A DNA stretch of 61,420 nt, the filler included. It is 4 parts of 4 records of this genome, joined end to end, with 100 filler letters (N's around TTAATTAATTAA, not from the genome) between each part and the next. Parts side by side here need not be neighbours in the genome. Positions count along the whole stretch, not along the records: positions 28,875 to 39,838 come from DRR378314_2083; 3 more parts are not named here. The stretch is one strand, 5' to 3'. The position numbers were made by a program, and so were the translations under genes. The notes under the pieces are model-generated. The model did not search any database. It saw nothing but the letters and a program-made list of their open reading frames with translations, and was not told where the DNA came from. Positions 173 to 49,264 of the stretch are shown one piece after another (the stretch's first letter is position 1; each line of letters opens with the position of its first letter).

Positions 173-4049
<3,877 letters not shown>

Positions 4050-23093: not shown

Positions 23094-23193
23094 NNNNNNN
23101 NNNNNNNNNNNNNNNNNNNNNNNNNNNNNNNNNNNNNTTAATTAATTAANNNNNNNNNNNNNNNNNNNNNNNNNNNNNNNNNNNNNNNNNNNN
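23094..23193. other. Artificial contig spacer (44 N + TTAATTAATTAA + 44 N)
   Basis: Six-frame stop linker flanked by N runs; identical to the other two spacers. Confidence 0.99.
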
Positions 23194-25879: not shown

Positions 25880-28732
25880 TTAGTCCGACTTGATGGCCCG
25901 GTATATGTACCGGACGAACGTGAGGGATGAGTAGAATCCAACAGTGCCAAGCATGATAAAAAGCCCGTAGCACATGACCAACATGTAGCCAAAAAACCAC
26001 GATGTCTGCATCAGGCCACTCATCCCCGTTCTTCAAGGGAGCAGCATGGCGAGAGAAAAAAAAAAAAGAAAAAAAGAGCGGATGAGAAAAAAGGGAAGAG
26101 GTGAGGTGCAGATCGGTTGGTATCATACTGGACATAAAGTACCGTTTCCCATGGTAAGGCCCACGAAACAAAGGGAAATGCCAAACCAAAAGCTATTGAC
26201 AAAGGTTCCCGAGTTGCAAAACGGCGAAATAGCTCTCGTGCCGCACACGCAGCGAGGAACGGCAAGAATTAGGTGCGAACACGTGTCTCGCCCCGCCGGA
26301 CGCCCCTCGATACCCGAGAGTCGGACCGCAGCGACACAACGCTAACTGAGGACCCTCGAGCCTTAACGTCATCGATATGATGAATGCGCCAGTAAGCATG
26401 GTTGATGAAAAGAAAAGCAGACGGTGCTTCTGGCTTGCAGTGCGGACGCCATTCGCTCCGGCTGCAACCGTCGTGCACGAAGCTACGGCATAGACGACCC
26501 AATCGATACTAAAGAAGGCGCTTCGCTTTCTTCGACGCAACCTCAAGCGCGCACGCGCAAAGACAGCGTCGTGCATACGCGGATGACAGAGCATGTGTGC
26601 AGCAGCGTACCGGAAAGTGAAGTAGTAGAAGCAGTACGCGTAGACGAAAAGTGCAACGGAGCCACCGAAGCAGAACGAGCGCCACCACCACTGATGATCT
26701 TCCGCATTGAGTTGGAAGTACGTGAGCGCAACTGTGACAAATGCGGTCACAAGAAGAAGGAGCAGGAATACTAGGAGAAGGACACCGTAAAGTTGGTAGA
26801 TCTTGTGGCCCCACACCGAAGAAAACACGTAGTAAAGCTCGATGTAAATTGCGCTGCATGTACACGGAGCAGCGAGCACAACGCAGAAGCGCAACCGGTG
26901 CCGCGGATCACCATGAGTAAACAATGCAGCGCGTGCCATCGTGGTTCCACATTCGTGGAGCAGACACGAGTGGCAAGCGTTGGGAGGAATTCCTGAAAAA
27001 TCCCTTCAATAGCTACGCACTCACGGGGAGGGGGAAGCCGCTTCGTTTCGCGATCCATTGGTGTAACGTGTGTTGTCGTATTTTTTTTTTCTCTCTCTCC
27101 CCTTTCCGTCCGCGCGCGGCCAACAGACTCCCGACTGGGTTTCCATACGCACCTAAAGGGCAAAACGCCCGCAAGGAGCGTTTGCGTGGCAGGACGGCGA
27201 TACCAATCGACTTCGGGAATCTCGCGCGGAATGCGGCGCGTAACCCGGCACGGGGCGTAAAACTCGCCGGCACGATTCTTGCCCACCACTCCGCCCGCAA
27301 TCGTCAGCGGAAAAGACACTGCACGAAACGCAGACGAAGCGCGCAAGCAAGCAGCAAACAATAGAGAGAGCCCCGACCGCGCATTGCTCAGCTGGCACCG
27401 TCGTATCGGAGCATGTGTCCGCCCGTATTCCACGCGCTCGGCCTCTGCGGATTATTGGCGGCAGGATAGCGAGGTCACAGTGCTTTGCAGCGGACGAGCA
27501 GCAGCAGGAGGAGCCCAACTCGCGCGCGCTCCGTACCGAGGAGTAAAATGGCGAGGATCGCAACGACCGTGCCAAAAGGAAGCGCCGAAGTCGACTCGTA
27601 GTACCACGCTATGCTATTATTCACCGCAAATGCCAAGATGATGGGTCCGAGGAACAAGAGCGTCGTTAGAAGAAGGTTGGGAATCCACGTCGTTCCCCCG
27701 AATTGCCGATACAGCTTCGCGGACACGTATCCCGACACACCTGCGCGGCGAGCACAACGACAGAGACAAGGATACACCGCGGACAGAGAGACGGCGCTCA
27801 GAATCTCGGACTGCACGCCAGACCACAGCGCAGGTTCCGCGGCGCAGAGTACTAACGACGAGAGAGCGCACAGTCGAGAGCGCGCAGCGGACTCCGCGTG
27901 TGTTGCACTTGCACGATGAAATGGGCAGATCATCGCGCGTCACTGCGTGGGGCAAAGCGCGATCCCTCATTCTCGTCCACGCCTTGTTCTGAAAAATGCT
28001 GCGTTCGCGTACGATCCTCTTTTATACTGTCTACGGGCTTCACGGGTTTTTGGGAGCGAGCACTGAGCGGCGATGAAATCCTGCGTGGCAGCGATCGGCC
28101 GCGGGAGGTACGCACATGATGTGAGTGCAAACAGCACTACGGCAGCGGTGTAGATCGCTCCACGATTGTACGGATAGTAGACACCGAGCGTTGCCATACT
28201 CACGATTCCCGCAACGAGAATGAGCAGCTGCGCTCCGTTTCCGAGAAACGCGGCCATTAAACCGGGCATGGGCGGGAAACGAAACACGTCGCCCGTAAGC
28301 GTCTTCCACCCTTCGTCCTGGGAATCTGCAGCATGAGCAACAAGTCGCCGCGCGCGGAAACGCGGCGGAAGACCCACGGCGATCGGCAGCAGCAGCGATC
28401 AGGACAGCAGCAGAGCCATACGGCATGCCAGAAGGGCGTTTACGCTCTCTAACGAAATTTATTCCCGCGCTAGGCAGCAATAGGACCAAGCGTGAAATGG
28501 GGACAAGTGCGAAGCGCGCACAACGTACCTTCGAAGTCATCTCCATCTTCCAGCGCGCGCGTGTACTTGTAAAAGTCTTTCCGCAGCACACGCATCAACA
28601 CCGTGGCGAGGAAGGCGACGAGCAAGATCACTGTGACAAAAGAGTTCAAGATCGAGAACCAGCGAATCTCCCAGTTCTTCGGGAGGAACGACGTCTGCGC
28701 CAGTCGCTCCATGCGGCGATCCCAAGGCAGAT
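25880..28732 (-). CDS. TM9SF1: Transmembrane 9 superfamily (nonaspanin), TM9SF1-like, 5' truncated
   Basis: Exons: 28732-28529, 28325-28116, 27740-27537, 27318-27153, 26853-26611, 26030-25880. Motifs: EIRWFSILNS, GWKTLTGDVFRFPP, SGYVSAKLY, STSALPFGT, IPREIP, AGVLPFSAIYIELYY, EDHQWWWRSF, MSGLMQTSWFFGY, and a C-terminal KxD (IKSD*) Golgi-retention motif. Confidence 0.92.
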
Positions 28733-28774: not shown

Positions 28775-28874
28775 NNNNNNNNNNNNNNNNNNNNNNNNNN
28801 NNNNNNNNNNNNNNNNNNTTAATTAATTAANNNNNNNNNNNNNNNNNNNNNNNNNNNNNNNNNNNNNNNNNNNN
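28775..28874. other. Artificial contig spacer
   Basis: 44 N + TTAATTAATTAA + 44 N. Confidence 0.99.
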
Positions 28875-29769
28875 GGGTTTATTTTTTCTTCTCGCGCATA
28901 CCAAAGCGTGCGCAACTGATTCGTGCTGTCGCTCGCTTCTCGCTCGCATTTCTCTTCGCTGCGTACTTTGCGCAGCATTTATATCGTGCTCTCATGGGAC
29001 CCTTCTACTTTGTGATCGAGATCATTCCATCCGCGTGCATTTTGTTCATGATGAGGTCAAACAGGCAAACGGTACGTGCGCACTGGCAGCGAATGCGTTT
29101 GTGACAGTCGGTTGTTGGTTTGCGCTCACGGAGCGAGTTGGCACGCGACGCGCGGCCGATTGTCGTGCGTGCCAAGGGGCTTTCCTTGGCCTTTCTTCCC
29201 GTAATTTTGACGCGGATTCTCCCCTGTGCGCTGCAACCGCAGCAAAGCAACAACTCGCCGCTGATCGAGAGCGGTACAGCTTCGTCGATCGGATATTCGG
29301 ACTACGAGTACGAGGGAACGATGCAATGATAGCGGCCTGTATTCGCTTGTGCTTTTTTATCGCGAAATCAGCGTCACGTAGTGCTCGCATTATGAAACGA
29401 TCTGGCGACGTGCGCATTGAGCGTTGCGCTTGTATCGGCAGAAATTCACAGGCACTGGTCCCCAGTCTGCGATCTGCGTCGGCGTGCGCAGGCGCCATAG
29501 AATAGCAACTCGAAAGGGGAAAATGAATGCCATATTCACACACGCACACGTACTTCGAATGCTTAAGGATGCGAAGGGGAGTGTCGTGTACGTAGCACGA
29601 TATGCACCGCACCTACAGGCGCGCTCGATTCTTCCCCAGCGCTCTGTCACTACGAAAAGCCACGCTGTTGCCCCTGCTGGGAAACAAAGACGGGACGAAC
29701 AGGCACACCGCAGGTGCTGTCCATGGAACGCTTGCTGCGTGCACACGATATCGATGACGCTCTTCTGTT

Positions 29770-30327
29770 TCACCGCCCGAAGAGGCGGAAAATGCCGTCC
29801 AGTGAGGCGAGGAGCGGTACAATCACAAGCATAATCACAAGGAGCCAGCGGAAGCATTGTCCACGCGATGACGCTTCCTCATCTGCGAGACAACCGACGC
29901 GGAGAGCACGTACGTTGTTCAAGTAAGCACACGGTACGTCCACAATCTCCCACACCAGTGGAGCATAACTAATGTACAAATGAAAGAGGAAAGAGAGGTA
30001 ACTCTACGCTGTGCGTAGCCCAGAGAACGAAGCTCTACGCGAGGTCCGAGCTCTGTCCACAAACACACTATGCATCAATGACGCAAGGAAGAAACCAGTG
30101 CGAAGATGACAAAAGACAGTCGTGAAATGGAGGGGAGAAGAGAAGGACAAAATGCCAAGTTCGTCTGTAGCTCTGGCGAAGCGCGGAACGAGCGAGAGGG
30201 AGCGCACAGCTCGGGTCGAAATCGGCGAACATCACGTGAAAAATCTGCCTTGCACGAACATACCTTCCCGCGCTCGCTGCTTGCGTCGCCGCTTAACCTC
30301 GGCGATCCTGCTTGCAACCTCCTCCAT
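29770..30327 (-). CDS. Hypothetical small membrane protein (or the N-terminal part of a longer gene)
   Basis: Exon 30327-30264 (ATG...G|GTATG) and exon 29882-29770 (CAG|AT...) join in phase 1 to give MEEVASRIAEVKRRRKQRAREDEEASSRGQCFRWLLVIMLVIVPLLASLDGIFRLFGR*: a basic helix followed by one hydrophobic segment. No family recognised. Confidence 0.35.
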
Positions 30328-30720
30328 CGTCTGTCCCGTGCACACGCGCAAGCACAAGACGAATCCCCCGAAAGCAAGCACGCCGGAGGCTGTGTAAGAC
30401 GCAAAGATGCACTGTTTCATTTTTTGGCATGTGGAGTCGAGATCGTCGTCCACATCGACTACGTGATCGTGCACTACCAAAACCCCTCGCACGCGCCTCA
30501 TATACACAACAATACAGGGCAGTTAGCATCAGTCATGTGTTGTATATTCATCTCAATGTCTCTCTATTTCTGCCACAGCGCGACAGAGTTGCGCGGCGAT
30601 AATACATGGATACGAGCAGGCAGCAATATCGCAGCGGTGGACGGCGGAGCAACGCGTCACAGGACCATGTCATGAGAGCTCCGCACGCTGCTTCTCCATC
30701 CTTGCGTTACAATGAGATAA

Positions 30721-33645
30721 TCACACATTCTGAAAGAAAAACGGCGTTATATTGAACAACACGCGGAGAGGGCTTACAGTCTCCGACATTTGCGATTGAT
30801 CCGTACCTGAGGCCGCGTGCCCGCGCATGAATCGTCCGCCGCGGCGCCTTTGCCGGCCGGCCGCGCGCCGGATCGCCGTTTGCCCTCCTCCTCACTGTCG
30901 CTCAACGCAGAGCTCGCGTCGGAGTCTTCATCCGTCTCGTCTTCCTCGATTGGATCCGATAAAAACCAGTACATTGCATACGGTACCACTGATGTACGAA
31001 TAGCTGAGAGCAGACCAAAGGTAACGGGAGACGGCGGGCGCTCGAGCGCGGAGAACAGCGAGGTGTCTCCATGAGCGCCTGCCAGCTCCTGCTCTCCCTG
31101 CGCCTTCCACTGGAACTTATCCGCCTCGCCCTGGATCCCTCCATCAGAGAGCTGTGCAACGCGAATATGCGCCGTGTGCTCCTCCATAAATGGACCGTCA
31201 ATAAATTCGATTGTTAGCACGAGCGACGCGGGCGAAGTGGCGTCGTCTGCCACAGTAACTCGCACATCGGATACATATTCGAGAACAGCGGCATCGGCGG
31301 GCGACACCATCGGGCCAACGTTTGGGTGACGCGAGAAAACCTCGCACCAGAATGAAGAACCTGCGCGTTTGTTGAATACCCCGGAAAACCACACGGCCAC
31401 AACGCAAACACATGTCATCCGGACATTCGTTTCACATAGCGTACACGCAAACCCATTTCGCGTCTGCGTCCATACGCGAGCCCATGGCGTCGCACAGAAG
31501 TACACCGCACGGAAACCGCACATGCTGCAAACCTTCTCCCCTAACCATCGCAGGCAACACGCTGCGCAGTCGCAGCTGACGGATCACTTGCGCACGCGAT
31601 CTCATAGCCCTGTCGTCCGCCAAAACATTGCGCACTTACGCTTCAATCTCCACGCGCTGAACGAAATCGATCGCGATGTATAGTCTTGCATTCGCGAGGG
31701 CTCTGTCCTCAAGCGTGCAGCCGCGCAAACAGGCAGCGTGCGGGATAAACATTCATAGCGAAAGCACACCGCCACACGACACAAAAAAAAAAAGAGGTGC
31801 GCACACTCGCGGGCACAGGACCAACTATGCCCACTTTTGCACCCTTCACTCGCACAACGCACCATGGCCGCATAACGGAAGTATCTGTTCCTTTCTTTCG
31901 TCGTAGAGGGCGCGCAACGCATTGTCGTTAGTGCGCGAGGCTTGTGTGAGTTGGCTCTCGATCGCAGAGCGCAGCTGGGCGGCTTCCTCTGCAATCGCTC
32001 CGAGCGCCTCCAGCGTGCGCAGCTGCTCCGACGTGAGGCCCTCTGTGTTCTCGGTGAGACTACTGAACAGCGCCACCGCATCAGGAACGATATCGTCGCG
32101 AATTGCCGTCATAAGTTCTAGCTCTTCCATGAGAGACTCGACGGCGTCGCCGTCGTGCTTTTTCTCGAAAAACTGGAAGAACGACCGCTGTCGCTTGACT
32201 TTCTCGCCGCGCTTTCCCTTCCCCAAGCGCTTAATCGTGAGCTCCTTGCCTGCCCGCCATTGTGGAGCAGCGCCGTCGATTCTGTCGACCTCGCCGGCGG
32301 CATTGAGGAAATACGTTCGCGACAAAACTGATCCCGACGGCTCCAGGAACGGACAGTTGCGAGAAAAGACGAATTTCACGACAATGGCCTGTGCGTACGG
32401 AACGCGTACATATCGAAGAGGACGAGAACGTCCGACAACACGTCAGAGCCATCCCACGGCGCCCGATAGGAGCAAGCCTCTTCTCTTTTCCATTTCCCGG
32501 TACAAACGAGAATCGCCAAGAACACCGCGCACGCGGCAAAAAAAATTGCTCGCAATTACGCGTGCGCGCAGCTGTCGCAAACAAGACGTGGATATGCACC
32601 GCACCGAGAGGGTGTCTGGCCAGATTGGCAGCTGCAGCTTTCGCGCGACAGCACTCCATTTCCCAGCGGAGGCTTCCAGGATTCGGCCTCACTCTCGCTA
32701 CAACGAGGTTCAAGCGCAGTTCATAGAAGTAGGAGCGCATGTACACAGCAAATAATCATCACAAGAACATGAGCGTACGTCTTTCGTCGTTACACATTGG
32801 ATATCCTCGAGATACTGCAGCGCAGCGCTGTCGGCACTTGTTACGCGATCTGCAAAGTCCTGGTGGCTGCAGAGAACGGAGCACCAAAACCCGGGAATAC
32901 CCTGCATGGAGGCAAATCGGTCCACCGCACGCCATACAGGAGCAAATGACACATTAACAAAAGAAATGGAGACCGAGCTGGCGGCCAGGACGCAAGGTAA
33001 GTAGTGCGGTGGTGCTTTCCCCCCCAAACACCGTCGTCAGCACACCGTGCAACCGCAGCACGAAGACGCCGCAACGCCAACCGGCGCAGCACGCAAGCGA
33101 TGGCCCCAACGAATAAAGCGAGTCCAATGACATTTGCACATCTTGCGCACCTTTTCCTCTTTCGTGGTTTCGTGCGCAGAATCTCCCGTCGCCTCCGCGC
33201 CGACCCCTTGCTGAATGAGCTTCCTCCGCTTCGCGTACACGCCAGCCAGCCGCTCGCTGGACTTGACAGCGATGCGCCGCACTTCGGACCGCCCGGCGGC
33301 GACAGCAGCGTCAATGCGGCTCTGCACAGCGTGCGATTTCAGGCAAATCCGCCGCATGCAACGCAAAAACAACGACAACAAAAACAATTTCAATCAAGTA
33401 AAAAAATTTGCATCTGCAAAAATAATACCGGAGGTGGCGAGGTTGCAAACATATCCTCTGCCATCTCACCGGCCTTGTACGGTACAGCAGAGCGCTCCAC
33501 GCGATCAGGCGCAGCGCGGCGCACGACGACGAGCGTCGCCGCCGCCTTGCCGCACCTGCACGCCTTCCAGCACGGCCTGTGCCTGCTCTCGTGCAGCGTC
33601 GCCCAGGTCATCGAGACGCTCCCGCGAAATAGTCGGCGCCGACAT
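30721..33645 (-). CDS. Nucleosome assembly protein (NAP/SET family) with two tandem NAP domains and an acidic tail
   Basis: Exons: 33645-33556, 33321-33151, 32901-32779, 32388-31863, (optional 31684-31640), 31360-30807, possible 30729-30721. Domain 1: long helix ending VYAKRRKLIQ, GIPGFW..., DSAALQYLEDI, FVFSRNCPF, PQWRAGKELT, SFFQFF, IRDDIVPDAVALF. Domain 2: helix ending LYDERKEQI, SSFWCEVFSRHP, DAAVLEYVSDV, FQWK, SLFSAL, IRTSVVPYAMYWF, then EEDETDEDSD. Confidence 0.85.
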
Positions 33646-34430
33646 GGTCAGCGTACACAGAAACGGTCACTACAAGTAACAAAAAGAAAGGGGAGGCAAA
33701 TTCGGCGACGATCGTCGCACGTTCACGAACGCGGCTTTCTACGCACTGTGCGTTCTCCGCTTTGCGGTTCGCTTCGAGCTGCAAGAGTGACTGTACGCAC
33801 GCAAGCACACGCTATGTGAGCACGTTCACAAAGAAAATTACACAGGCGATTGCGTCGGAGGAGCAAAGGCCGCCCGCTCGGCCCTGTCGCTCGATGGAAC
33901 GTGGCGACCAGCTGCGCACGCAAGCCAGTCGACGAGAGAAGATACCCGAGAGTGCCAAGGCAAACGCCAGCGCACGCTCGCCGCACGGCTGCTGGCCAGG
34001 GGAGAGAGTGGCCCGGCGGGTCTGCAGAAGCCCGACGCCGCACATCTCCTCTCAGTAGGGTGGCATCTTGCATCCTCGGCCCAGCGCGCTACCGAAACCC
34101 GGTGATATCCTCTCTTTCGGACACGTCAACCCAGCCGGCCGGCGTTGTCTGTCGCGGCTTTCGCAGAAAGGAAAACAAAAGAAGGAGTTGTTCGCACCTG
34201 CTGCTCAGGTGTTTCTTCCTTTTCGTCTTCGTTCGCTGTTCCTCTCGCAAAACCCTGCGCGCCTACTCCCCTGCCTCTTACATCGAGAGAGCTTCCGTAC
34301 AATATTTTCGTGTATTTAGCGATTGTTCTCGCGCGCTCTAGCTGCCACTGCTTTTCGCGTGACGTACCTTGTCGGAGCGCGCCCGTGAGCAACTTGTGCA
34401 CATATCGCTCCGGCGTGCCTGGTTGCTGCG

Positions 34431-37400
34431 ATGACAGGGCGGGCAAAAATCAGTGTGGCTCACGCAAATGCTGCAGCTGCTTCACCCGTTTATCTAGGTA
34501 AGCTCAAGATTGAGCTGCCCGGCGATGTTGCGGAGGAGCTGCGTCTTGCTGAACGGCGCTGCTGGGCGCGCACACCGACCCACTTCCCGCACTGCGTTGC
34601 CGCGGCGCTTGCTGTGTGGGCGCCTGCTGCCCCGACGCAGCCGGACACGCCGTGGTTGAAGCGCCGGCCTACGCTCCTCTTTGACTCGTTCGTTTCGGGA
34701 TGTTGTCCAGTGACACCATTCATGCTCATGAAATTGTATGTGCTGTCGACATATTTCTGTGAGGGGAGATAGGTGGAGATGTGCGGTTGGCAGCAGGTGC
34801 GACTGCGCAGAGGTATGCCCGCACCCTCTAACCTGCGTCGACGCTGTGCGCTGCTGCAGCTTCGTTTCGTACAGGCCCGCCCCCACAGGGAAGCGTCGAC
34901 GCAGATTCCGCCAACAAAGACGCTCTCCGGTTCCGCGCTTTTCAGACAGGTATAACGATGAGCTCACGTTCTAAAAGCATGCTATAGGAATTGTGTACTG
35001 GCGTACTGGAGCGTATGCGCTTGCGTTGGAGAATCGGTGCTACTCCGCTACACCGTGTGTGCTGCTCCTGACATTCGCGGGCTTTTGTCGGCAACTTTCG
35101 TTCGCGTCCAACAGGAAAGCGGCGTCTTGTCGTGGGCGAGTCGCACCTGCTCAGCTATGTTGACGTGTCGCCCGCAGAAACAACAGGTGCGATATATTTC
35201 GTTGCTTTCCACATGGCAAGACGTGCGCCATTTTCGCTTGAGTCGATTGCTGCAGGAACGAGCTGGTTTTTGCTTTTGTTTGTTTGTTTGTTTCCCGCAG
35301 CAGTCGACTTTGCGCTACACCCTGTACTGACATTGCTCTTTGGTGTTCCCTTTCGACGGCGCGGCCTCTTGAAGACCCCTCTCCGATATCGTACGCAGTG
35401 GGAGTGTGGAAGCCATCCGCAAAGTCTCTCAGTATATTACCATGTGACCGGGTACGCTGCAAGCGAGGACCGCTATGCCTCGCCCCCTGCACGAACAGTG
35501 TTATTGCTCCACGGTGCGGCTGCTGCGTCGCCGTCGTTTCCGTCACCGACGACGCTGCCAGCGCTGGCACTCCCTGGAGCGCCTCGAGCCAATGCGCGCT
35601 CTCAAAATAGGTCGCGCGCGCGGTCCATTTGCTTTGTTATATACGCAGGTATTTTCACTGACGCAGCAATTCAAGAAATCTCGCTCCTCTGTGGCGCAGA
35701 ATGCGACGAGTGAGATGTCGCGCAGTGAACAGCGGTACGCTTCGTTGGTCTCGCACGCGGCGGCACAATGTCATTTTCTGTCTATGCAAATCCGAATTTC
35801 CCTTTGCTTACACCAAACGTTCACCTTATCTGAATGCATGTGAGCATGCTCCAATGACCTTGTCTTAGTCTCAAAGAGGCTTCAAATCTTACCGTGCGTC
35901 ACGATCAGCACATCGGGCACTGTCACACCCCTTCCCACAAGTGCATGGCTCTGCGGCAACCTGATCGCATCATGGGCCGCCCTTGCCGCGACCCCTTCCG
36001 ACGTTTAGCGCCATGCTTGTACAGGCATTTGCATCTCGAAAGGTGAAGAATGCAGAAAAACGTATTGCAGCCGGAAAGGCCGACGCTAACGCGGTGAAGA
36101 ATGTTGACGATGTCGCAGAGTACGTGTTTGCTCCTGGGAAATGTATCTCACCCCACTGTTGCGCTTTCTCCTTGTGCTGGAGAGAGGCGATTGAGGAGGA
36201 GCTTTCGCACTGGACCAGACAACGCGCCCATCCTGGGAGCATTGCCACGTACTCATATGGCTCTTTTACTCATATCTGGTATGTCTGACAAACCGGTGAT
36301 CGTGGCGATTTTATTCTCTGTACGCGTGTGTTCAGAACGATTCAGAAATCTGCGGAGCTGGGCATGACAATGGACGACATGCAGAAAGCAACGCTCGAAG
36401 CCTTTGCAAAGCTGCTTCCTCCGCATAACACGGAAGCTGAGGAAGCCGACCAAGTCTGTACGTTTCCGAACCCCTCCTCCTCTCGTATGGCAGTCGCCGG
36501 GGGACCGCATGTTGACCGCGTGGGCTCTGATTACTCCGTTTGTGGTTCGAAGTGGACCGAGGTGGTTCAGGTCCGTACCTGACGAGAAATGCTCTCGAAC
36601 TGTGTCCTGCCAAACCACTTGGTGTTTCAGACCCGCTCGACGGCATATTGCCTGGCAAGGCTTGGCCTTCGCTCAATGAACCCATGAAGGAGCTCGAAAA
36701 GGCGCTCAAGAAGGATTCGTTGCGAGCAAAAATGCGGTGCGTGCATGCTTTCGGGGCACCATTTACCGTGGCGGGAAATGTAAGAGCGTTCGAATTTCCT
36801 TCCTTTTCATGTAGAGGAGTACTTATTGCATACTTCAGCTTCGGCATTCTCGTGCACAACCTGTGCTATTGTTCATGTCGTTATCTCAAAGGTATTGGGA
36901 CACAAACATGTTCCTGATCCTGGATCTCGCGTGGTATTCTTGTCACGTGGAACACGTAAGCGAAGTAGGGTTATGTACACTGTACGCAGGGATCTGTTGT
37001 GGCGAAGCTCGCTATGTTTTGCGTGTACAAGGCGTGTTCCCTGCTCTTAGTTTCCTCCCCTTGGTTCCGAATAGCAAACGATTGGTCTAAGTACAAATTC
37101 AAATGCTGGTGTGTGCGGACCAATTTCTACTACGGTACATCAAGGGCATCTCTCGCTGCGTAGAATGCGATTGGCAGTTGCCCTATTTTTCCGCTGTGCG
37201 TGGGCGTTATTTTATCAAGGCGAGGCCGGCTTGATCTCCGCCAAGAGGTGCTCGTTCTATGCGCTGTATACGTACCATCGCAGTACCGTATTCGTGTTCT
37301 GTAAAGGTCGAAAATTATGGCCTTGTTTCCATCTTACGATTTTGGTTCCTGTTCTGCATCCATCGCACAGAGAGTCGAAGCGCTGGAGCGCGGTGGTGCT

Positions 37401-38877
37401 GGAGCGGCTTGAGAGGCTCGCGGTGCGTTGCACAGCAGCTGGCAGCACAGCAATTCACACGGAACGAGCCAATTGAGTACATTCCTTTTGCCAATTCCGA
37501 ACAGATGATGCAGTTTTCATTCGCGGTTGGCACATGGTCTATGCATGCGAAATGATATGACGCTGCAAGAAACCCGATGCGCATCGCCGGGCCTGCAAAC
37601 AATGTGCTTTCCCATGCGCGCAGCGACGCGCTCGGATCCTTACCAGCGGCTCCCTTTTCCTTGCCTGCCACTCGTGATGGCGGCGATCCTCGGCGGTATA
37701 CACAGAACGAGGGAGGACTCGATAAATCTCGTATCCGAAATGTTCTTCGCCCGTGCCTAGTGTACGAGTATGCTCTGCGAGTGATGAAAATGAAAGCGAC
37801 TGTGTTCGAGTCAGTATTCTCAGACGACAAGGTTTGTTGGGCGCCGCAAGCCGACGCTGCGCGTTCGACCTTGCCGTGACTTTTTTTCGCCGTTCACTAT
37901 CCCTTCTCATCCAGGTCGACGCAGCCACACACTTGATGGGTTATTAAAAATGGCATGACACTGGTTTGAATTTCTCGCTTGTGTTTACCGCTGCTGCCGC
38001 TGCGATGCAGCATGAAATCCCAGATGCGGCTCTGGAGCACTTTCTTTCGGTTATGTACAAGTCTGAATCGTCGCCCAAAGGGGCTGTCTATCGTCGCGGA
38101 CCGGTACGTTGCTCTTCAAATAGATGTGTTTGTTTCATATGAACAATGCTTATTTTCGCGGTTTTTGAATTATTCCTCGTTGTATAGAAGTACGATCCGG
38201 GTGCGGTGGCGGTTCTTGTTGCCGCCGCGTTCCCTCTTGGCCGACGCGCGGCGGCAAATGGTGTGCCTCCCGCACAGGAGAAGCGGCATGAGTAGATTTG
38301 CGAGCAATGCGTCGCTGTACGTGCATTCTTTGTTCTTTTGTTAATGCTCATCAAGGACTTCTCTACATGTGCGTGCCCCTAATACCGGTGGCACGGGTGC
38401 AGAATGATCGCCGCACAGCGATGTACTACGTGCTGGCTGCTGCGGTCCATGCCGGGGGGCAACAGATTCCCGTTGCGACGGTCGCCAAAGATATAAGCCT
38501 CGCAGAAAAGACCGTCACGTCCAAGTTCAGGTACGAATCCTGCGCGCCGCATTTCCTCTTCAAAATGTAACAAGAAAGAAACGTCGGTGTGATAGTGCGA
38601 GCTGGGTAGGGATCTTCCTTCCAGCACTCGCAACTTCCGACTTGCCCACGAGCGGACACCGCTACGCTACCGCTGGGTGCTTCTCGCTCTACTATTCATT
38701 GATATGCATACTTTTGGATGTATAAATGCGACGGTCGTGGTATTCTGCAGAGAAATGGGATGCAATGTCACAAAGGTATCGATTGCTGCTGCAGACGGGG
38801 AGAGCGCTGCGGAAACCAACGTTGCCAAGTTCAAGGCTCCGCTCGTCCTTCCGCCTGTCCGGAAACGGCGTGCTTAG
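34431..38877 (+). CDS. POLR1E: RNA polymerase I subunit RPA49/PAF53 (A49-like)
   Basis: In-frame exons: 34431-34497, 34875-34949, 35115-35186, 35375-35451, 35649-35734, 36009-36119, 36336-36457, 36631-36736, 37371-37422, 37706-37831, 38011-38103, 38403-38530, 38751-38877. A49 motifs: YAVGVW, LVQAFASRK, LPPHNTEAEEADQVYPLD, YVLAAAVH, VAKDISL, FREMGC, AKFKAPLVLP. The first two exons are less certain. Confidence 0.85.
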
Positions 38878-38946
38878 GGTCATGTGTTTCTGTCATATCT
38901 GTTTCGGTTCCGGTTCATTTACTACAATACAATGAAATTGTCACCG

Positions 38947-39348
38947 TTATTCCTCGTGAAAAGCTTTGGGCGACGCGACGAAGCTGTAGTCGGACAGTAG
39001 CTCCTCGTCGCAAATATCACGAACAGCAACTAGAGCGACAGTCGGTGGAGGACGGAGAACGTCACTGTTGGTTTCCATGTCGCGACGCGCCCAGATATTC
39101 GGAACCTGGGCACGAACGGAAAGTGGAAGTGTGTCCGGCAAGTGGCACTCTGTATACATCACATTATTCACCCGATCGGTGGCGCCATTGATAATATTTC
39201 CGAAAGCAAAGTAGGCTTTCCCGCCGGAGCTGTTCCACCCCTGATGGTCGAGCCATGTATCATCCGCAAGGAACAGTGGGCCAGTTTCCGTTTCTACACG
39301 ATCGCGTAGTCTACACGCCCGAAATATACGCGCAGATAGCCCACTGTC
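38947..39348 (-). CDS. SETD9: SETD9-like SET domain protein, terminal exon (5' part not resolved or truncated)
   Basis: CAG acceptor at 39349-39351, then DSGLSARIFRACRLRDR..GPLFLADDTWL..FAFGNIINGATDRVNNVMYTECHLPDTLPLSVRAQVPNI..VALVAVRDICDEELLSDY. This parallels the SETD9 C-terminal motif series recalled from memory (DKGISK..RDRLGP..DSTWL..LAVGQYVNN..ANVCYQE..LPNI..VVLVALRDI..EELFSNY). Confidence 0.72.
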   Translation of the reverse strand, partial: DSGLSARIFRACRLRDRVETETGPLFLADDTWLDHQGWNSSGGKAYFAFGNIINGATDRVNNVMYTECHLPDTLPLSVRAQVPNIWARRDMETNSDVLRPPPTVALVAVRDICDEELLSDYSFVASPKAFHEE

Positions 39349-39811
39349 CTGCAAGCGTTGTCGGGGGCGCGGAAAACACAAACCGAAAGGAACGAATGCC
39401 AATCACACAAACAGCGCAAGCGCACGGCCTCGATGTCTGCAAAGATATCGCTAGTCGCAAGCATGGTCTCTCTCCCCCATGTGCGCCTTGTCCCGCTCAC
39501 TTTCTCCCCAGTGCAAATGTGCACTCGCTGTGGCAATTAAGGGTGCATAGATGACAAATTCAGAGAGAATCGCCAATAGCAACACCGTGTCTCTGCGACT
39601 CGCACGCATTGTGTCGCCAGCGGGGCTAGCGGCGCCCCAGGAGCAGCAACGTCTGCCAAGCCTCCGCCACGCGCGCAGACGACCACCGGCGGACCTGCGA
39701 ACTAGCTACGCCATGCCATGCATCCCCTCCACGTATTCAACCGCTCAGTGTCGCACGCAGTAACTGCGATCCCGCAAATATCGCATAGCGTAGGCGATAG
39801 AGACGTTAACA

Positions 39812-39838
39812 CGCGCGCGCGCACACACACACACACAC
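39812..39838. repeat. (CG)n(CA)n microsatellite at the contig end
   Basis: cgcgcgcgcg followed by cacacaca... running into the spacer. Confidence 0.9.
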
Positions 39839-39938
39839 NNNNNNNNNNNNNNNNNNNNNNNNNNNNNNNNNNNNNNNNNNNNTTAATTAATTAANNNNNN
39901 NNNNNNNNNNNNNNNNNNNNNNNNNNNNNNNNNNNNNN
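39839..39938. other. Artificial contig spacer; boundary between eukaryotic and bacterial DNA
   Basis: 44 N + TTAATTAATTAA + 44 N; base composition and gene structure change abruptly across it. Confidence 0.99.
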
Positions 39939-41801: not shown

Positions 41802-42495
41802 TTCCATAAGCCTGAGCATCATAATCCCAACCCTAAATGAGGCTGCCCATATTGGCCATTTGTTGGAGCATTTAAAAACGAACAGCAGTCCCAAGAACAT
41901 CAAGGAAATAATTGTGGTTGATGGCGGCAGTACGGATGGTACCCCAAGCTTGGCAAAAACTTTGGGGGCAAAGACCATAACCTCAGAAATGGGGCGTGCA
42001 AAACAAATGAACAAGGGCGCGGAATTGGCCACAGGCCATGTCCTTTACTTTTTGCATGCCGACACCTATCCGCCAAAAAATTTTGACCTTTATATTCTAA
42101 ATGCAATTCATAACAATATGTCTTCGGGTTGCTTTAGGATGAAGTTTGATACCTCCAAAAAGTTTTTACGATTCTTCGCCTGGTTTAGCAGAATAAACAA
42201 CCAACTATGTAGGGGCGGTGACCAATCTCTATTTGTTCTCAAGGACCATTTCCAAAAAACAGGAGGCTTTAATGAGAAGTATATTATCTACGAGGATACG
42301 GAATTTATTGGCCGCCTTTACAAAACCTCAAAATTCAAGGTATTGCCGCAACATGTAGTAACCTCGGCCAGAAAATATGAACAGATTGGAACCCTTAAAT
42401 TACAATATCATTTTGGGATAATCCACCTGAAGAATTTGCTGGGTGTTGGCCCCGACCAATTGTACCGCTATTACAAGAAAAATATTGCCTCTTAA
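41788..42495 (+). CDS. GT2 glycosyltransferase, TIGR04283 (arsenosugar/rSAM-associated) type
   Basis: Motifs SIIIPTLNEA, IIVVDGGSTD, GRAKQMNKGA, FLHADT, GGDQSLF, GGF..EDTEF, TSARKY. Start overlaps the DUF547 stop. Confidence 0.88.
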   Translation: MKLSNSISLSIIIPTLNEAAHIGHLLEHLKTNSSPKNIKEIIVVDGGSTDGTPSLAKTLGAKTITSEMGRAKQMNKGAELATGHVLYFLHADTYPPKNFDLYILNAIHNNMSSGCFRMKFDTSKKFLRFFAWFSRINNQLCRGGDQSLFVLKDHFQKTGGFNEKYIIYEDTEFIGRLYKTSKFKVLPQHVVTSARKYEQIGTLKLQYHFGIIHLKNLLGVGPDQLYRYYKKNIAS

Positions 42496-42501
42496 ATTTC
42501 C

Positions 42502-43548
42502 TTAATTTTTAGTGTCAAAATCCAATAAGACCCCTTCTGAAATCCATTTGGCAAGGGCTTGTCTATTGTCAGGGTCCAAGATTCGCTTTTGGTCCTTTTT
42601 GTTTTTAATATTCCCAATTTCTATATAGGCCATAGCCGGCAAGGTGTTCTTGACCAAATATAATCCACTTCGGTCTGCAAAGGTACCTTCATAATTCCTA
42701 TTGGGTTGATATTGTCTGTATTTATTTAAAAAAGTCTCATGGATACTTTCCGCCAATCGCTTGCCGTTCTTACTGTTCTCGTGATGATAGAAAAATACGT
42801 CTATATTCTGTCCCCTGCTACGACTATCTACATGGGTCACTATTAACCTTTGATATTTACCAGCATTTTCCTTATAGAGTTTGTTCACTATATCAACACG
42901 CTGCTTTAACCGCAATAATTGGTTTAAAGGTATTTCCTCATTGGGATAGGCCACCTCATCCCTATCTATTTCCAGAACGCGCTGATCCCTTATGCCATCA
43001 TTGGAATCCCTGATAATAATGTAGGTCTTGGCCCCATGGGATATAAGCTCCTTGGCCAAACGCAGCGTAATATCATAGGCATACTCGTCCTCGGCTATAA
43101 TTTTGCCCTCATATTTTTCAATGGCACCAGGGTCCGGTCCGCCGTGACCCGATATTAAATAATAGATGGCACCCTCTAATTTATTACTTTTTATTTCCGT
43201 GGAAGCGTAATCTTTACCAAAAATATCATCGTTGAGGATATTGGATACCGTTTTAATTTCGGTGGCCTTTTTTACAACGGATTCTTCTATGGGAACTGTA
43301 TCTACAGTTACGGGAGGTATAATGTATTCCCGTCCCTCATAAAGATGCATACTATCCCGTAAATTATCTTGATTAAGGTCTACAAAATGTCCGTAATGCC
43401 TAACCGGATTCATCCCTTGTTTCCTGAGAATGGAATAAATACCATCTCCCCTTTCCGCAATTACGGTTTTAACCGAAGTTTGGGAAATTAAAGGGAGCCA
43501 TATTAAAGCCCCGATCCACGATAAAATAAAAGTTCTTTTGGCAGACAC
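42502..43548 (-). CDS. N-acetylmuramoyl-L-alanine amidase (Amidase_3) with an N-terminal LysM-like segment
   Basis: Zn motifs SGHGGPDPGA, EDEYAYD, THVDS, YIEIGN. Probable GTG start at 43548 downstream of a TATTTTTG element (the ORF track starts at 43566). Confidence 0.88.
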   Translation of the reverse strand: MSAKRTFILSWIGALIWLPLISQTSVKTVIAERGDGIYSILRKQGMNPVRHYGHFVDLNQDNLRDSMHLYEGREYIIPPVTVDTVPIEESVVKKATEIKTVSNILNDDIFGKDYASTEIKSNKLEGAIYYLISGHGGPDPGAIEKYEGKIIAEDEYAYDITLRLAKELISHGAKTYIIIRDSNDGIRDQRVLEIDRDEVAYPNEEIPLNQLLRLKQRVDIVNKLYKENAGKYQRLIVTHVDSRSRGQNIDVFFYHHENSKNGKRLAESIHETFLNKYRQYQPNRNYEGTFADRSGLYLVKNTLPAMAYIEIGNIKNKKDQKRILDPDNRQALAKWISEGVLLDFDTKN

Positions 43549-43706
43549 GATGTATATTTTGTACAAATATTATCAAAAATACTGCCCAATTCCAAAAACA
43601 ATCCAAAATGAAGGAATTCTTGGGCTGTTTCTGCCCAGAATTTAGCTTTAGCTTCTTATAGCAAAGCAATTATTAATCAAAGACCCGATAAATTTGGAAT
43701 AGGGCT

Positions 43707-44708
43707 TCAATAAATCTTGTAAAAACTCTTTATTACCTCTTGTGCCGGTTTATTTTGGGGGGTAAATCGATTGTCATTAATACCGCCGGCCTTTTTATGA
43801 TCAATAAACCATTTCCAAACAAATCCGCCTGCAAACCAATCTTCGCTCCAAAATTCTTCAAAAATAGCCTTGGTTGCGTTGGTTTGGGCCTCAAGATTTA
43901 CATCGTCCTGGCTATGGTCTACCAACCAAGGTTTCTTGGCAGCATAATTATTGCTCCTATAGCCGTATTCCGTAAATATAATCGGTTTATTTTTCGCCAT
44001 GGATAAGGATTTTATTTTCTCCTTGTGCGGTTGCCATCCCCTTCTCAATTGTTCCACGGTGGGAGTTTTCTCATCACTCAGTGGAAAGTAGGCATCTATC
44101 CCAATAAAATCCAAATCCTCCCAAAAAGGGGTTCTTCCATATTCGTCCCAATTGGCAGCATAGGTAAGTTTTCCTTTATAAACACTTTTGATCTTTTTGA
44201 TCAGTTCCGTCCAGTATTCCGGCCTGTGACTAACAAACTGCTCCAACTCGGTCCCAATACAAAATGCGTCCGCATTTGTTTCCTGGGCCAAAGTAGCATA
44301 AGCAAGTATAAATTTATCATAAGACGCTTCCAAGGCCCTCCAGTTTTCTTCTGAATCCATTTTTAAATTACCGGTAAATGCTCCCCTGGAGATCCAAATC
44401 TGTGGTTTCAACATTACTCTTAAACCATTCTGGTGTAATATATCTATGTATTGCCTGGCTCCGGTCCTTGTTTCCCCGAACCATTGTCTGGAGGTGTCGA
44501 ATATTATTTCTGGCGAGCCTGTATCCCTAATAAATCCAAAGGGCATTACCGCTGCACATTTGGCGTTTACATTCCTAACGGCATCCACGTGTTCTTGGGC
44601 TACCTTTTCCCGAGAAGCAACAAAGCTAACACCATTGAATTTCTCCATTGCTTGGCCACTACAACCAAGTTGTAATAACAATAAGAAAAGAAGTCCTAAT
44701 TTTTTCAT
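43707..44708 (-). CDS. Glycoside hydrolase family 113-like TIM-barrel lipoprotein
   Basis: Lipobox-like LGC; motifs VMLKPQIW, IGTEL, LTYAANWDEY, IGIDAYFPL, FTEYGY, GGFVWKW. Confidence 0.82.
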   Translation of the reverse strand: MKKLGLLFLLLLQLGCSGQAMEKFNGVSFVASREKVAQEHVDAVRNVNAKCAAVMPFGFIRDTGSPEIIFDTSRQWFGETRTGARQYIDILHQNGLRVMLKPQIWISRGAFTGNLKMDSEENWRALEASYDKFILAYATLAQETNADAFCIGTELEQFVSHRPEYWTELIKKIKSVYKGKLTYAANWDEYGRTPFWEDLDFIGIDAYFPLSDEKTPTVEQLRRGWQPHKEKIKSLSMAKNKPIIFTEYGYRSNNYAAKKPWLVDHSQDDVNLEAQTNATKAIFEEFWSEDWFAGGFVWKWFIDHKKAGGINDNRFTPQNKPAQEVIKSFYKIY

Positions 44709-44878
44709 TTAAATAGTTTATAGCCCTAATTTACTCCTTTTCTAATTCATTATAAAAATTAACTGGTTAAGCTTTATTAAATGTTGGCTGCAACTTTAAA
44801 AATTTATGCTTCCACATTAATTACGGATAACATTGAATAACGAACCACTACTTCCTAAGAAACAAACTTAGATTTCCT

Positions 44879-44886
44879 TAGCTTTG
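44879..44886 (+). promoter_or_regulatory. Bacteroidota -7 promoter element (TAnnTTTG) for trmB
   Basis: TAGCTTTG, 25 nt upstream of the GTG start. Confidence 0.65.
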
Positions 44887-44911
44887 CCAAATATTTAAAC
44901 TAATAATACGA

Positions 44912-45583
44912 GTGGGAAGTAAGAATAAGCTGAAGCGATTCAAGGAGAATGAAACTTTTAGGAATGTAATTCAACCCACTAGGGAAGAAATTACCAATGG
45001 TTCTTTTTCACTAAAGGGGCAATGGAATGAATTTTTTGGCAATAACAATCCCTTGGTTTTGGAATTGGGCTGTGGAAAAGGCGAATATACCATTGGGATG
45101 GCCAAGCAAAACAAAAATAAAAACTTCATTGGTATAGATATCAAGGGAGCCCGCTTTTGGAGAGGTGCCAAAACGGCTATTGAAGATAATGTATCCAATG
45201 CTGCTTTTTTAAGAACCCAAATAGAATTAATTGACGGTCTTTTTGCTTCCGATGAAGTTTCTGAAATCTGGATTACCTTTCCAGATCCCCAAATCAAATA
45301 TAAACGTACCAAACATAGACTTACCAATGAGGTCTTTTTGGATAAATATAAATTGATTCTTAAGGAAGATGGTACCGTTAACCTAAAAACCGATAGCGAA
45401 TTTATGCATGGCTATACCTTGGGCCTTTTACACGGTAAAGGTCATGAAGTGCTCTATGCCAATCACGACATCTATAAAAACGAAGGTAGCCCCAAGGAAG
45501 TATTGGAAATACAGACTTTCTATGAAAAACAGTATCTTGATAAAGGAAAGCCAATCACCTATATCAAATTTAGAATAAGGTAA
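44912..45583 (+). CDS. trmB: tRNA (guanine-N7)-methyltransferase
   Basis: Motifs LELGCGKGEY, GIDIKGAR, IWITFPDPQ, KHRL, LKTDS, IQTFYE. Confidence 0.96.
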   Translation: MGSKNKLKRFKENETFRNVIQPTREEITNGSFSLKGQWNEFFGNNNPLVLELGCGKGEYTIGMAKQNKNKNFIGIDIKGARFWRGAKTAIEDNVSNAAFLRTQIELIDGLFASDEVSEIWITFPDPQIKYKRTKHRLTNEVFLDKYKLILKEDGTVNLKTDSEFMHGYTLGLLHGKGHEVLYANHDIYKNEGSPKEVLEIQTFYEKQYLDKGKPITYIKFRIR

Positions 45584-45586
45584 ACC

Positions 45587-46216
45587 ATGGAGCATTTGCT
45601 TACCCTTTTTTTTGCTACTTTCTCTGCGGCCTTCATGGCCACGGTACCACCTGGTCTATTGAATATGAACGCTGCCAAGATAAGTGTGGAAAAGGGTAAG
45701 ACCAACGGTATTATTTTTAGCTTGGGGGTGTCTACCATGATCATTATTCAGGCCTATATTTCTGTTCTGATTTCCAAGTTTCTATTCAAAAACCCGGAGA
45801 TCATAGACCTCCTCTTAAAAATTGCCCTTATTGTCTTCGCTTTTTTTGCCATCTACTTCTTTGTAAAAGCCAAGAAAAAAAAGCTGAATCGACCTAAAAT
45901 TGTAAAGGTTAGCAAGAAAAATAGTTTCTTTAAAGGAATATTATTGGCAGCCCTAAATTTATTGACCATACCTTATTACAGTGGCCTAAACGCCATGTGG
46001 AACGCCTCAGGATGGATACAATTCCAATTTCGTGATATAGCCACATTTATCCTCGCTGCTGGTTGTGGTACTTTTACGGTACTCTATCTCTACACGGTCT
46101 ACTTCACCAAATTAGAGACCAAAAACAATGGGTTTTCAAAAAATTCAAATTATATATTAAGCGCCTTAATGATGCTTTTATTGGTAATTACCTTAATCCG
46201 TATTTTTTATACCTGA
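45587..46216 (+). CDS. LysE-family transporter-like membrane protein
   Basis: About 6 TM segments; PPGLLNM and FFKGILLAALNLL motifs. Confidence 0.75.
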   Translation: MEHLLTLFFATFSAAFMATVPPGLLNMNAAKISVEKGKTNGIIFSLGVSTMIIIQAYISVLISKFLFKNPEIIDLLLKIALIVFAFFAIYFFVKAKKKKLNRPKIVKVSKKNSFFKGILLAALNLLTIPYYSGLNAMWNASGWIQFQFRDIATFILAAGCGTFTVLYLYTVYFTKLETKNNGFSKNSNYILSALMMLLLVITLIRIFYT

Positions 46217-46551
46217 TGAAACCCGAAAATGAGAACTTCTTTGAAAAAGTATATGCAGTGGCCAGGCAAATACCATTTGGGCGGGTTACCTCTTATGGAG
46301 CCATCGCCAAATATCTAGGAACCGCCAGAAGTGCCAGAATGGTAGGCTGGGCCATGAACGGCTCCCATAAAATTGAAGATATCCCGGCGCATAGGGTAGT
46401 TAACAGAAAAGGGCTATTAACAGGGAAACATCATTTTGAAGGCACCAATTTAATGCAGCAGCTATTGGAAAATGAGGGAATTAAAGTGGTGGATAATCAA
46501 ATCGAGGATTTTGAAAATCTCTTTTGGGATCCCTGGCAGGAATTGAAGTAA
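46216..46551 (+). CDS. MGMT-family alkyltransferase-like (ATL) DNA-binding protein
   Basis: Probable ATG at 46216 overlapping the previous TGA. Motifs IPFGRVTSYGAIA, ARMVGWAM and PAHRVV, with Ala in place of the catalytic Cys of PCHR. Confidence 0.88.
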   Translation: MKPENENFFEKVYAVARQIPFGRVTSYGAIAKYLGTARSARMVGWAMNGSHKIEDIPAHRVVNRKGLLTGKHHFEGTNLMQQLLENEGIKVVDNQIEDFENLFWDPWQELK

Positions 46552-46663
46552 TTTTCTTGATTACAATTACCGATAATATTGGATAAATCGCAACATATAA
46601 AGCTTACTTATTGCCTTATTTTACTTTTCAATTACCTTCCTTCCTAATCTCGCTCCTAAGCCC

Positions 46664-46692
46664 TATCTTTGTAATTTAGAATCAGTTTTAAT
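46664..46692 (+). promoter_or_regulatory. -7 promoter element plus an imperfect palindrome upstream of mrp
   Basis: TATCTTTG at 46664-46671, followed by ATTTAGA-ATCAG-TTTTAAT at 46674-46692. Confidence 0.5.
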
Positions 46693-46717
46693 AATGACTG
46701 AATAAGAATGGTTTAGG

Positions 46718-47860
46718 ATGAAAATAGATAAGAAAGACATACTTAAAGCCCTTGAAAACATCACTGTGCCTGGAGAAGGACAAAATATGGTGGAGAGTGG
46801 CGCTGTTAAAAATATTATGGTTTTTGGGGACGAGGTAGTTGTTGATATTACCATTTCCAACCCTAGTTTGCAGGCGCGAAAGAAAACCGAAGTTGAAATT
46901 TTGAAAGTGATACACGAGAAGGTATACAACAAGGCCAAGATTACCGTTAACGTAAAAGTTAATGCCCCTGCTGCCAAGCCTAAGGTGAATGAGATAAAAG
47001 GAAAACCCATCCCAGGGATCAAAAATATTATTGCGGTCGCTTCCGGAAAAGGAGGCGTAGGGAAATCCACGGTCACGGCAAATTTGGCCGTCACATTGGC
47101 TAAAATGGGGTTTAAAGTGGGACTATTGGACGCGGACATTTATGGTCCTTCCATGCCCATCATGTTCGATGTTGCCCAAGAAAAACCTTTGGCCGTAAAT
47201 ATTGAAGGAAAATCCAAAATGAAGCCCATAGAAAACTATGGCGTAAAACTCTTGTCCATTGGCTTTTTTACCCAGCCCAATCAGGCTGTAATCTGGAGAG
47301 GCCCTATGGCCGCCAAAGCGCTGAATCAAATGATTTTCGATGCCCATTGGGGAGAGTTGGATTTTATGTTGCTGGATCTTCCTCCCGGAACAGGGGATAT
47401 ACATTTAAGCATTATGCAATCCTTACCAATAACGGGTGCCGTGGTAGTAAGTACCCCGCAGGAAGTAGCCCTGGCAGATGCCCGTAAAGGTGTGGCCATG
47501 TTCCAACAAGATTCCATAAATGTACCAGTGTTGGGAATAGTAGAAAATATGGCGTATTTTACACCAGAGGAATTGCCCAACAACAAATACTATATTTTTG
47601 GAAAAGAAGGTGCCAAGCACCTGTCCGAGGATTTAAATGTTCCTTTTTTAGGCGAGATACCTTTGGTACAAAGTATTAGGGAGGCCGGAGATGTAGGAAG
47701 GCCAGCGGCACTGCAAACGGCAACAGCAATTGAAACCGCTTTTGAGGAACTTACAAAAAATGTGGTACAGGAAGTGGTAGATAGAAACAAAAGTTTACCT
47801 CCAACAGAGGCTATTAAAATAACTACAATGGCAGGTTGTTCGGCTGTTAAAAAGAAGTAA
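46718..47860 (+). CDS. mrp: Mrp/NBP35 (ApbC) Fe-S cluster carrier ATPase
   Basis: N-terminal FeS-assembly-type domain; motifs ASGKGGVGKST, DADIYGPS, WRGPM, DLPPGTGD, VVSTPQ, GIVENM. Confidence 0.95.
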   Translation: MKIDKKDILKALENITVPGEGQNMVESGAVKNIMVFGDEVVVDITISNPSLQARKKTEVEILKVIHEKVYNKAKITVNVKVNAPAAKPKVNEIKGKPIPGIKNIIAVASGKGGVGKSTVTANLAVTLAKMGFKVGLLDADIYGPSMPIMFDVAQEKPLAVNIEGKSKMKPIENYGVKLLSIGFFTQPNQAVIWRGPMAAKALNQMIFDAHWGELDFMLLDLPPGTGDIHLSIMQSLPITGAVVVSTPQEVALADARKGVAMFQQDSINVPVLGIVENMAYFTPEELPNNKYYIFGKEGAKHLSEDLNVPFLGEIPLVQSIREAGDVGRPAALQTATAIETAFEELTKNVVQEVVDRNKSLPPTEAIKITTMAGCSAVKKK

Positions 47861-47862
47861 TT

Positions 47863-48105: not shown

Positions 48106-48142
48106 GCTGACTTTTATCATAATCCAATCCTAATCCCTTTTT

Positions 48143-48150
48143 TAGCTTTG
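48143..48150 (+). promoter_or_regulatory. Bacteroidota -7 promoter element for the FNR gene
   Basis: TAGCTTTG, 24 nt before the ATG. Confidence 0.6.
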
Positions 48151-48174
48151 TAGCTATTTTAAGTTCCTTTTTCC

Positions 48175-49233: not shown

Positions 49234-49264
49234 AAAAAACAACCAAATCCTAAAGTAAATCCCT

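Follow-up and report, generated by a model that had tools for sequence, protein, structure and literature searches.

Can one polypeptide chain carry both halves of a histone chaperone that normally works as a pair of separate subunits, and can those halves be unlike each other? This question was raised by a NAP-family gene on the minus strand of a 61,420-base stretch of DNA (the window, in what follows). An earlier note on this DNA had proposed that the letters from 30721 to 33645 encode a single polypeptide with two complete, strongly diverged NAP domains in tandem. Pfam matches, a single reading frame and a spliced contig all bore this proposal out. In addition, the analysis as a whole points to a six-exon gene whose 520-residue product is probably a covalent pseudo-dimer, with its long helices paired antiparallel within the chain. 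To our knowledge, all of the NAP-family chaperones that have been studied are symmetric homodimers, and it is still a matter of debate how a single histone cargo is shared between two identical NAP halves. A natural asymmetric NAP chain would show that symmetry is not required. Moreover, one half of a chain with fused, unlike halves could be mutated alone, which would provide a tool for asking which half does what.

In the portions available of two published accounts, NAPs are described as single-domain proteins (PMC4357127, PMC6630525), and a NAP domain is reported in all Arabidopsis and rice members (PMC4357127). The available portion of PMC6630525 also describes antiparallel "tram-track" packing of the long helices in all solved NAP-family proteins, dimerisation helices of 41-77 residues and very stable dimers. 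The premise of the earlier note, namely, that NAPs normally have one domain and form dimers through their long helices, agrees with that account.

Two NAP domains in one chain

Five minus-strand stop-to-stop frames were scanned with Pfam, and matches to the NAP profile PF00956 that exceeded its curated cut-off of 28.6 bits were found in three of the five (Table 1). The first two matches were consecutive parts of one domain. In the third match the profile restarted, which marked it as a second domain. Thus, the scan returned two NAP domains, with domain 1 divided between two frames and domain 2 in one frame.

The frame at 31846-32442 contained exon 4 (32388-31863), and no stop codon was present between the last conserved helix of domain 1 and the new helix that followed it. 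The earlier note had described this exon as free of stops between the close of domain 1 and a second dimerisation helix, and it was indeed recovered as one frame and as one piece of the spliced contig described below. When exon 4 was compared to PDB sequences, two matches to NRP2 were obtained: the first part of the exon matched NRP2 residues 112-212, and the last part matched NRP2 residues 5-62 (a weak match of 4.6 bits). The end of a NAP protein followed by its start is the pattern that is expected at a head-to-tail junction.

We also used a local profile derived from 95 single-domain NAPs. This profile spanned residues 12-238 of the spliced product (independent E value [iE], 1.4e-30), and its alignment supported the long helix of domain 1 from residue 12 onward. 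In domain 2, the same profile matched only residues 306-344, where the earmuff begins, and residues 419-462, the latter being the last helix with the tail (iE 1.8e-7).

Gene model and spliced contig

The six exons listed in Table 1 yielded a 1563-nt frame (520 codons plus TGA), and all five introns had GT..AG borders. An in-frame stop was located just 5' of the ATG, and the stop-to-stop frame began at 33666. Evidence for this model came from one 2548-nt contig of public run X1, which lacked the introns and matched the window in five pieces with no differing letters. Four intron joints were exact, including those around exon 2 (33556/33321 and 33151/32901), and the fifth was implied. Specifically, the next 30 letters of the contig past 30807 were identical to window positions 30330-30301 on the minus strand, with an AG before them; the remainder of the contig was 803 letters long, and the comparison past 30807 rests on those 30 letters. 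All of the intron borders that the earlier note had given or implied up to 30807 were GT..AG and were used by the contig. In particular, the contig joined the exons across 31863/31360 exactly, which is where the note had proposed a check with transcript sequence.

The 3' end of the earlier model had to be changed. The note had placed a terminal mini-exon at 30729-30721, and hence the boundary of the gene at 30721; this was wrong and the mini-exon was dropped, because the contig proceeds from 30807 to 30330. The product ends instead in a basic patch, a run of nine residues encoded by exon 6 (30294-30268), which is a candidate nuclear localisation signal. The position of the stop codon presumes that there are no more introns, and a possible extra donor was noted in exon 6 at about 30265.

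Run X1 held 46% of the sampled words of the region 30600-33800, which was about the exonic share calculated from exon lengths. Taken together, the results indicated that this is a real gene, that it is apparently expressed, and that its host is a GC-rich eukaryote.

Domain 2 is a complete but strongly diverged NAP unit

The earmuff of NAP proteins is an alpha/beta fold, with a four-stranded antiparallel sheet and short flanking helices. As judged by alignment A1, the landmarks of domain 2 matched those of other NAPs: the FW motif and the conserved D and L that follow it, the W in the sheet, S.F, and the last helix. In a BLASTP comparison, domain 1 and domain 2 were 24.7% identical over 154 amino acids that covered the whole earmuff (E 8e-11). 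Against the other NAPs that were compared, domain 2 gave at best a far weaker BLASTP match (6.7e-5).

An AlphaFold2 model of exon 5, which was generated with A1, had a predicted local distance difference test score (pLDDT) of 73.9 and a predicted template modelling score (pTM) of 0.63. It contained two helices, four strands, four helices and an unstructured tail, with the acidic tail showing low pLDDT and no secondary structure. A Foldseek search of the PDB with the domain 2 model produced 88 matches at E <= 0.001, and the top matches had a probability of 1.00 and a query-based template modelling score (TMq) of 0.5-0.6. The proteins among these top matches were SET (7mto, E 1.4e-7), Vps75, NRP1, NAP1, PfNapL and PfNapS. 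In the case of domain 1, the second half (exon 4) was modelled, and strands were seen. We conclude that domain 2 is a complete NAP unit that is very diverged, fast-evolving and more acidic.

Connector, long helices and pairing

The AlphaFold2 model of exon 4, which was generated with alignment A2, had a pLDDT of 72.3 and consisted of strands, a helix (residues 82-112 of the exon), a seven-residue coil and a second helix (residues 120-173). The second helix is the long helix of domain 2, and its pLDDT was 80-89 over most of its length. In A2, this helix lined up with the second N-terminal helix of proteins that carry two NAP units (double-NAP proteins). With 54 residues, it also falls inside the range of dimerisation helices of solved NAPs that is given in the available portion of PMC6630525. 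A complex prediction with exon 2 residues 1-45 and exon 4 residues 108-175, which was run without controls, gave a score of 0.02 relative to a mark of 0.34, and such a score on helix segments counts neither for nor against pairing. Given the architecture of the family, it is plausible that the two long helices pair within the chain and that the protein forms a pseudo-dimer.

Asymmetry of the two halves

The two halves differed in more than their sequence identity. Alignment A1 showed a basic hairpin in domain 1 and in other NAPs, of which domain 2 is missing about 20 residues, and the earmuff of domain 2 had a net charge of -11. A single acidic tail followed domain 2 and was itself followed by the basic C-terminal exon (net +5); domain 1 had no tail. 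Both of these features, the missing hairpin and the one tail per chain, had been read correctly in the earlier note. Half 1 alone has the hairpin, and half 2 alone is followed by a tail and a basic patch; these complementary losses fit two specialised halves in a fixed 1:1 pair.

Origin of the fusion

A maximum-likelihood tree was constructed with 20 domain rows, and SET/NRP sequences were left out. The NAP units of plants were located in a supported plant clade (97/98), and the units of the window were located outside it. Domains 1 and 2 of the window joined each other with 97/83 support. Common descent of the fusion with the plant proteins, in which the first domains would group together and likewise the second domains, was not what the tree displayed, although this result carries a long-branch caveat. 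Thus, the fusion probably arose by internal duplication, and we conclude with moderate confidence that it is independent of the plant double-NAP proteins.

The intron positions are a separate observation. In both NAP units an intron was located three to four residues before the FW motif (at 32901 and 31360), in phases 0 and 1, respectively. Domain 1 contained an extra intron (32778-32389) that had no counterpart in domain 2. This pattern would fit a duplication at the genomic level that took the intron along and was followed by drift.

Relatives in databases and in the literature

Word-based homologue searches with exon 4, performed with sequences of longer and of near lengths, returned no match at E <= 0.001. 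Metagenome and genome contig collections yielded 588 and 501 pattern matches, respectively, with no relative among them. In contrast to these searches, a HMMER search of 1.84 billion representatives returned seven matches at E <= 0.001 (best, 2.9e-6), which corresponded to six NAP proteins and one LRR protein. Two of the seven contained two PF00956 stretches each, namely, P0002 (662 amino acids) and P0003 (596 amino acids, from Rosa sericea).

When P0003 was used as the query, 1092 proteins were found at E <= 1e-10 among 8000 scored candidates. All 19 of the long relatives (466-618 amino acids) that were picked from 120 listed had two to three NAP stretches each; their named sources were Fragaria, Rosa, Rubus, Buddleja, Fraxinus, Citrus, Oldenlandia, Salix and Morella. 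Records of flowering-plant proteins with two or three NAP stretches included P0008, P0009, P0012, P0015, P0022, P0026 and P0027, and several were RefSeq records with isoform names. In some of the plant double-NAP records, adjacent genes may have been merged into one model. In the ESM Atlas, exon 4 returned leads below 0.9 only (NAP clusters at 0.81), and P0003 returned NAP clusters at 0.94-0.96, including a 524-amino-acid plant cluster. Natural double-NAP chains with short connectors exist, which indicates that the fused form is viable.

A literature search, which was limited to one paper collection, produced no account of two NAP domains in one chain, and the available portions of PMC13565876 and PMC8546589 describe no such chain. 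The remark in the earlier note that this architecture was not known as a described family thus stood in one respect, as no paper was found, and did not stand in another, as public protein sets contain double-NAP proteins, mainly from plants. Chains of the double-NAP type are rare and seem to have no published description, yet they are present in databases.

Proposed explanation and alternatives

In the explanation that we favor, two NAP units, each with a long helix and an alpha/beta earmuff, are fused head to tail in one chain. The long helices would pair antiparallel within that chain, like those of the two subunits in every solved NAP dimer, and the product would be a built-in covalent heterodimer. 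Histones (H2A-H2B or H3-H4) would be presented with one asymmetric cradle that has a single hairpin, a single acidic tail and a single nuclear targeting patch, in place of two of each. The fusion would have come from an internal duplication in this lineage, separately from the double-NAP proteins of plants. A division of labor between the halves is a more tentative proposal. Half 1 may supply the hairpin, and half 2 may supply the acidic face, the only tail and the targeting patch, in a fixed 1:1 cradle that is convergent with the plant proteins.

Several points weigh against the covalent pseudo-dimer. The connector is only 7-11 residues long, about half the length seen in plant double-NAP proteins, and the structural models cover exon 4 and exon 5 singly. 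Alignment A1 consisted of NAPs, which biased the domain 2 model toward the NAP fold, so the model supports that fold but is not independent proof of it. The Pfam match spans just the first third of domain 2 (profile positions 85-144), and in the tree the end branch of domain 2 is 4.9 changes per column, versus 1.5 for domain 1; domain 2 could be decaying or in another role. The joining of the two window domains in the tree was flagged as long branches meeting and may be false. Run X1 was labelled "RNA?" by guess, and a processed DNA copy of the gene would look alike. Finally, no orthologue in which the fusion would be conserved was found in the protein or DNA collections searched.

The short connector bears directly on whether the helices pair within or between chains. 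The same fused gene could produce chains in which helix 1 has its partner, either helix 1 or helix 2, on another chain, and these would be domain-swapped dimers or open-ended oligomers with at least four earmuffs. The connector is shorter than those of the other double-NAP proteins aligned, which is in line with such interchain pairing, and higher oligomers of NAP dimers are known, with AtNRP2 tetramers generated by crystal symmetry in the available portion of PMC6630525. However, the published architecture of the family suggests that an antiparallel pair would put the start of one helix beside the earmuff of the other unit. Linking earmuff 1 to helix 2 by a short connector would thus be permitted, and indeed expected, when pairing is intrachain. 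The strong divergence of the two domains and their complementary losses also fit a fixed 1:1 partnership, and we consider swapped dimers or oligomers to be rather unlikely. The long branch of domain 2, its partial detection by Pfam and as two fragments by the 95-NAP profile, and the loss of its basic hairpin would all be in keeping with a decaying or co-opted remnant that acts as a spacer or as a binding module for something other than histones, while domain 1 does the work and dimerises between chains. Yet no stop or frameshift interrupts the frame of domain 2 across 280 codons, and the G+C content of domain 2 at third codon positions is 0.63, which is above the intron G+C content of 0.51-0.58. 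Its landmarks are in order and its model folds as an earmuff. Furthermore, the acidic tail and the basic patch were placed after domain 2, which argues that it is no dispensable appendix, and a remnant is therefore improbable.

It is highly improbable that the gene is an artefact, in which two adjacent NAP genes were misread as one or the assembly is chimeric. In favor of an artefact, the window is a chain of separate contigs, its assembly mixes a eukaryote and a bacterium, and some of the plant double-NAP records could themselves be merged models. However, the junction lies inside one stop-free exon, well within the piece at 28875-39838, and the intron-less contig, which belongs to a separate run, carries the same junction. 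In addition, there is no separate tail or stop for domain 1 and no separate start for domain 2.

The covalent pseudo-dimer thus remained our preferred reading. Together with the plant double-NAP records, it would point to a recurrent and so far undescribed architecture. If the convergence with plants is true, covalent pseudo-dimerisation would be a recurrent solution in the NAP family. The practical weight of the finding is limited, as the family and fold are ordinary and the collections searched yielded no orthologue.

Genomic setting

The window consists of four separate pieces that are split by three spacers. Because of these spacers, the window was read as four strung contigs, and features are not readable across them. 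The NAP gene is located wholly in the third piece (28875-39838, about 55% G+C), far from any junction. An (AC)n run at 39825-39838 closes this piece and is a likely cause of the assembly break there.

Pieces 1 to 3 contained eukaryotic genes split by introns, and the only Pfam matches among 107 long frames of the eukaryotic pieces were to exons of kinesin (a motor domain) and EMP70. The last piece was about 40% G+C, and the 10 kb of it that was searched (42000-52000) showed 99% identity to a bacterial genome, G001. This nearest genome contained no match to 30721-33645. A bacterial last piece next to intron-bearing pieces 1 to 3 indicates that the assembly mixes a eukaryote with a bacterium, for which prey, a symbiont and a contaminant are the candidates.

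Table 1. Positions of the NAP gene, its parts and other features in the window
Feature	Position	Strand	Details
5' untranslated part	33646-33926	minus	in contig piece 33926-33556
Exon 1, coding part	33556-33645	minus	30 codons, ATG 33645-33643; N-terminal part of domain 1 helix 1
Exon 2	33151-33321	minus	57 codons; remainder of domain 1 long helix and loop; AG/GT flanks
Exon 3	32779-32901	minus	41 codons; start of domain 1 earmuff, FW motif at residue 92; PF00956 79-121
Exon 4	31863-32388	minus	526 nt, single open frame; remaining domain 1 earmuff, connector, domain 2 long helix
Domain 1 basic hairpin, residues 170-200	32173-32265	minus	11 K/R in 31 residues, net +9
Connector between domains, residues 237-247 (11)	32032-32064	minus	model: 7 coil residues between helices
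Domain 2 long helix, residues 248-301	31870-32031	minus	model, 54 residues; place of NAP dimerisation helix
Exon 5, first part: domain 2 earmuff, residues 304-441	30948-31360	minus	FW at 307, conserved last helix from 424
Exon 5, second part: acidic tail, residues 442-488	30807-30947	minus	14 D/E, net -8
Exon 6	30232-30330	minus	32 codons and TGA 30234-30232; AG acceptor, open frame, contig continuation
X1 contig pieces	33926-33556, 33321-33151, 32901-32779, 32388-31863, 31360-30807	minus	
NAP match, domain 1	32710-33036	minus	PF00956 profile 79-121, 34.5 bits
NAP match, domain 1	31846-32442	minus	PF00956 profile 126-263, 48.3 bits, E 1e-12
NAP match, domain 2	30774-31583	minus	PF00956 profile 85-144, 35.4 bits, E 8.8e-9
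Spacers	23094-23193, 28775-28874, 39839-39938		each 44 N + TTAATTAATTAA + 44 N
Kinesin motor exon frames	173-619, 2864-3430	minus	PF00225 profile 273-324, E 1.3e-21; profile 61-133, E 3.6e-20
EMP70/TM9SF endomembrane gene, intron-split	26196-28398	minus	second piece; 4 frames, consecutive PF02990 parts, profile 240-512
Last piece	39939-61420		L001 = G001:C3:2282824-2295819; G001 size 5.6 Mb

Comparison with known NAP proteins

The best solved sequence matches for both halves were SET/TAF-Ibeta and NRP1/NRP2, which form the short NAP subfamily (7mto, 2e50, 5day and 6jqv). Specifically, exon 4 matched NRP2 (E 4.8e-5) and exon 5 matched NRP1 (E 1e-4) in the PDB sequence search, and SET was also found; these top matches were weak (E 5e-5 to 1e-4). 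As in SET and the NRPs, the unit appears to open with the long helix, with an alpha/beta earmuff and an acidic tail after it, and SET was the best fold match of domain 2. In contrast to the window protein, which has two unlike units in one chain, SET/NRP proteins are symmetric homodimers of single-unit chains according to the available portion of PMC6630525. The window protein also differs in that it has one tail, one hairpin and a sequence identity of only about 15-30%.

Yeast Nap1 and metazoan NAP1L belong to the same superfamily and have the same earmuff fold, and in A1 the hairpin region of NAP1 aligns with the hairpin of domain 1. ScNAP1 has extra helices before and after the long helix, as described in the available portion of PMC6630525, but neither unit of the window protein appears to.

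Parallels in overall architecture are seen in the double-NAP proteins. P0002, from a library of representatives at 50% identity, is GC-rich-looking and has two diverged NAP units, the second of which is on a long branch. However, it did not group with the window domains, and it is 24-28% identical to domain 1 of the window. The plant proteins include P0003 (Rosa sericea), P0008 and P0009 (Fragaria vesca "nucleosome assembly protein 1;2-like"), P0012 (Buddleja) and P0027 (Citrus). Like the window protein, they have repeated PF00956 stretches (two to three per chain) and a short connector that leads directly into another N-terminal helix, although their connector, counted between the last helix and the long helix after it, is about twice as long as that of the window protein. 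In contrast to the window protein, they are NAP1-type proteins with halves that are much more alike, and their units group inside plant NAP1, which indicates that they arose separately from the fusion in the window.

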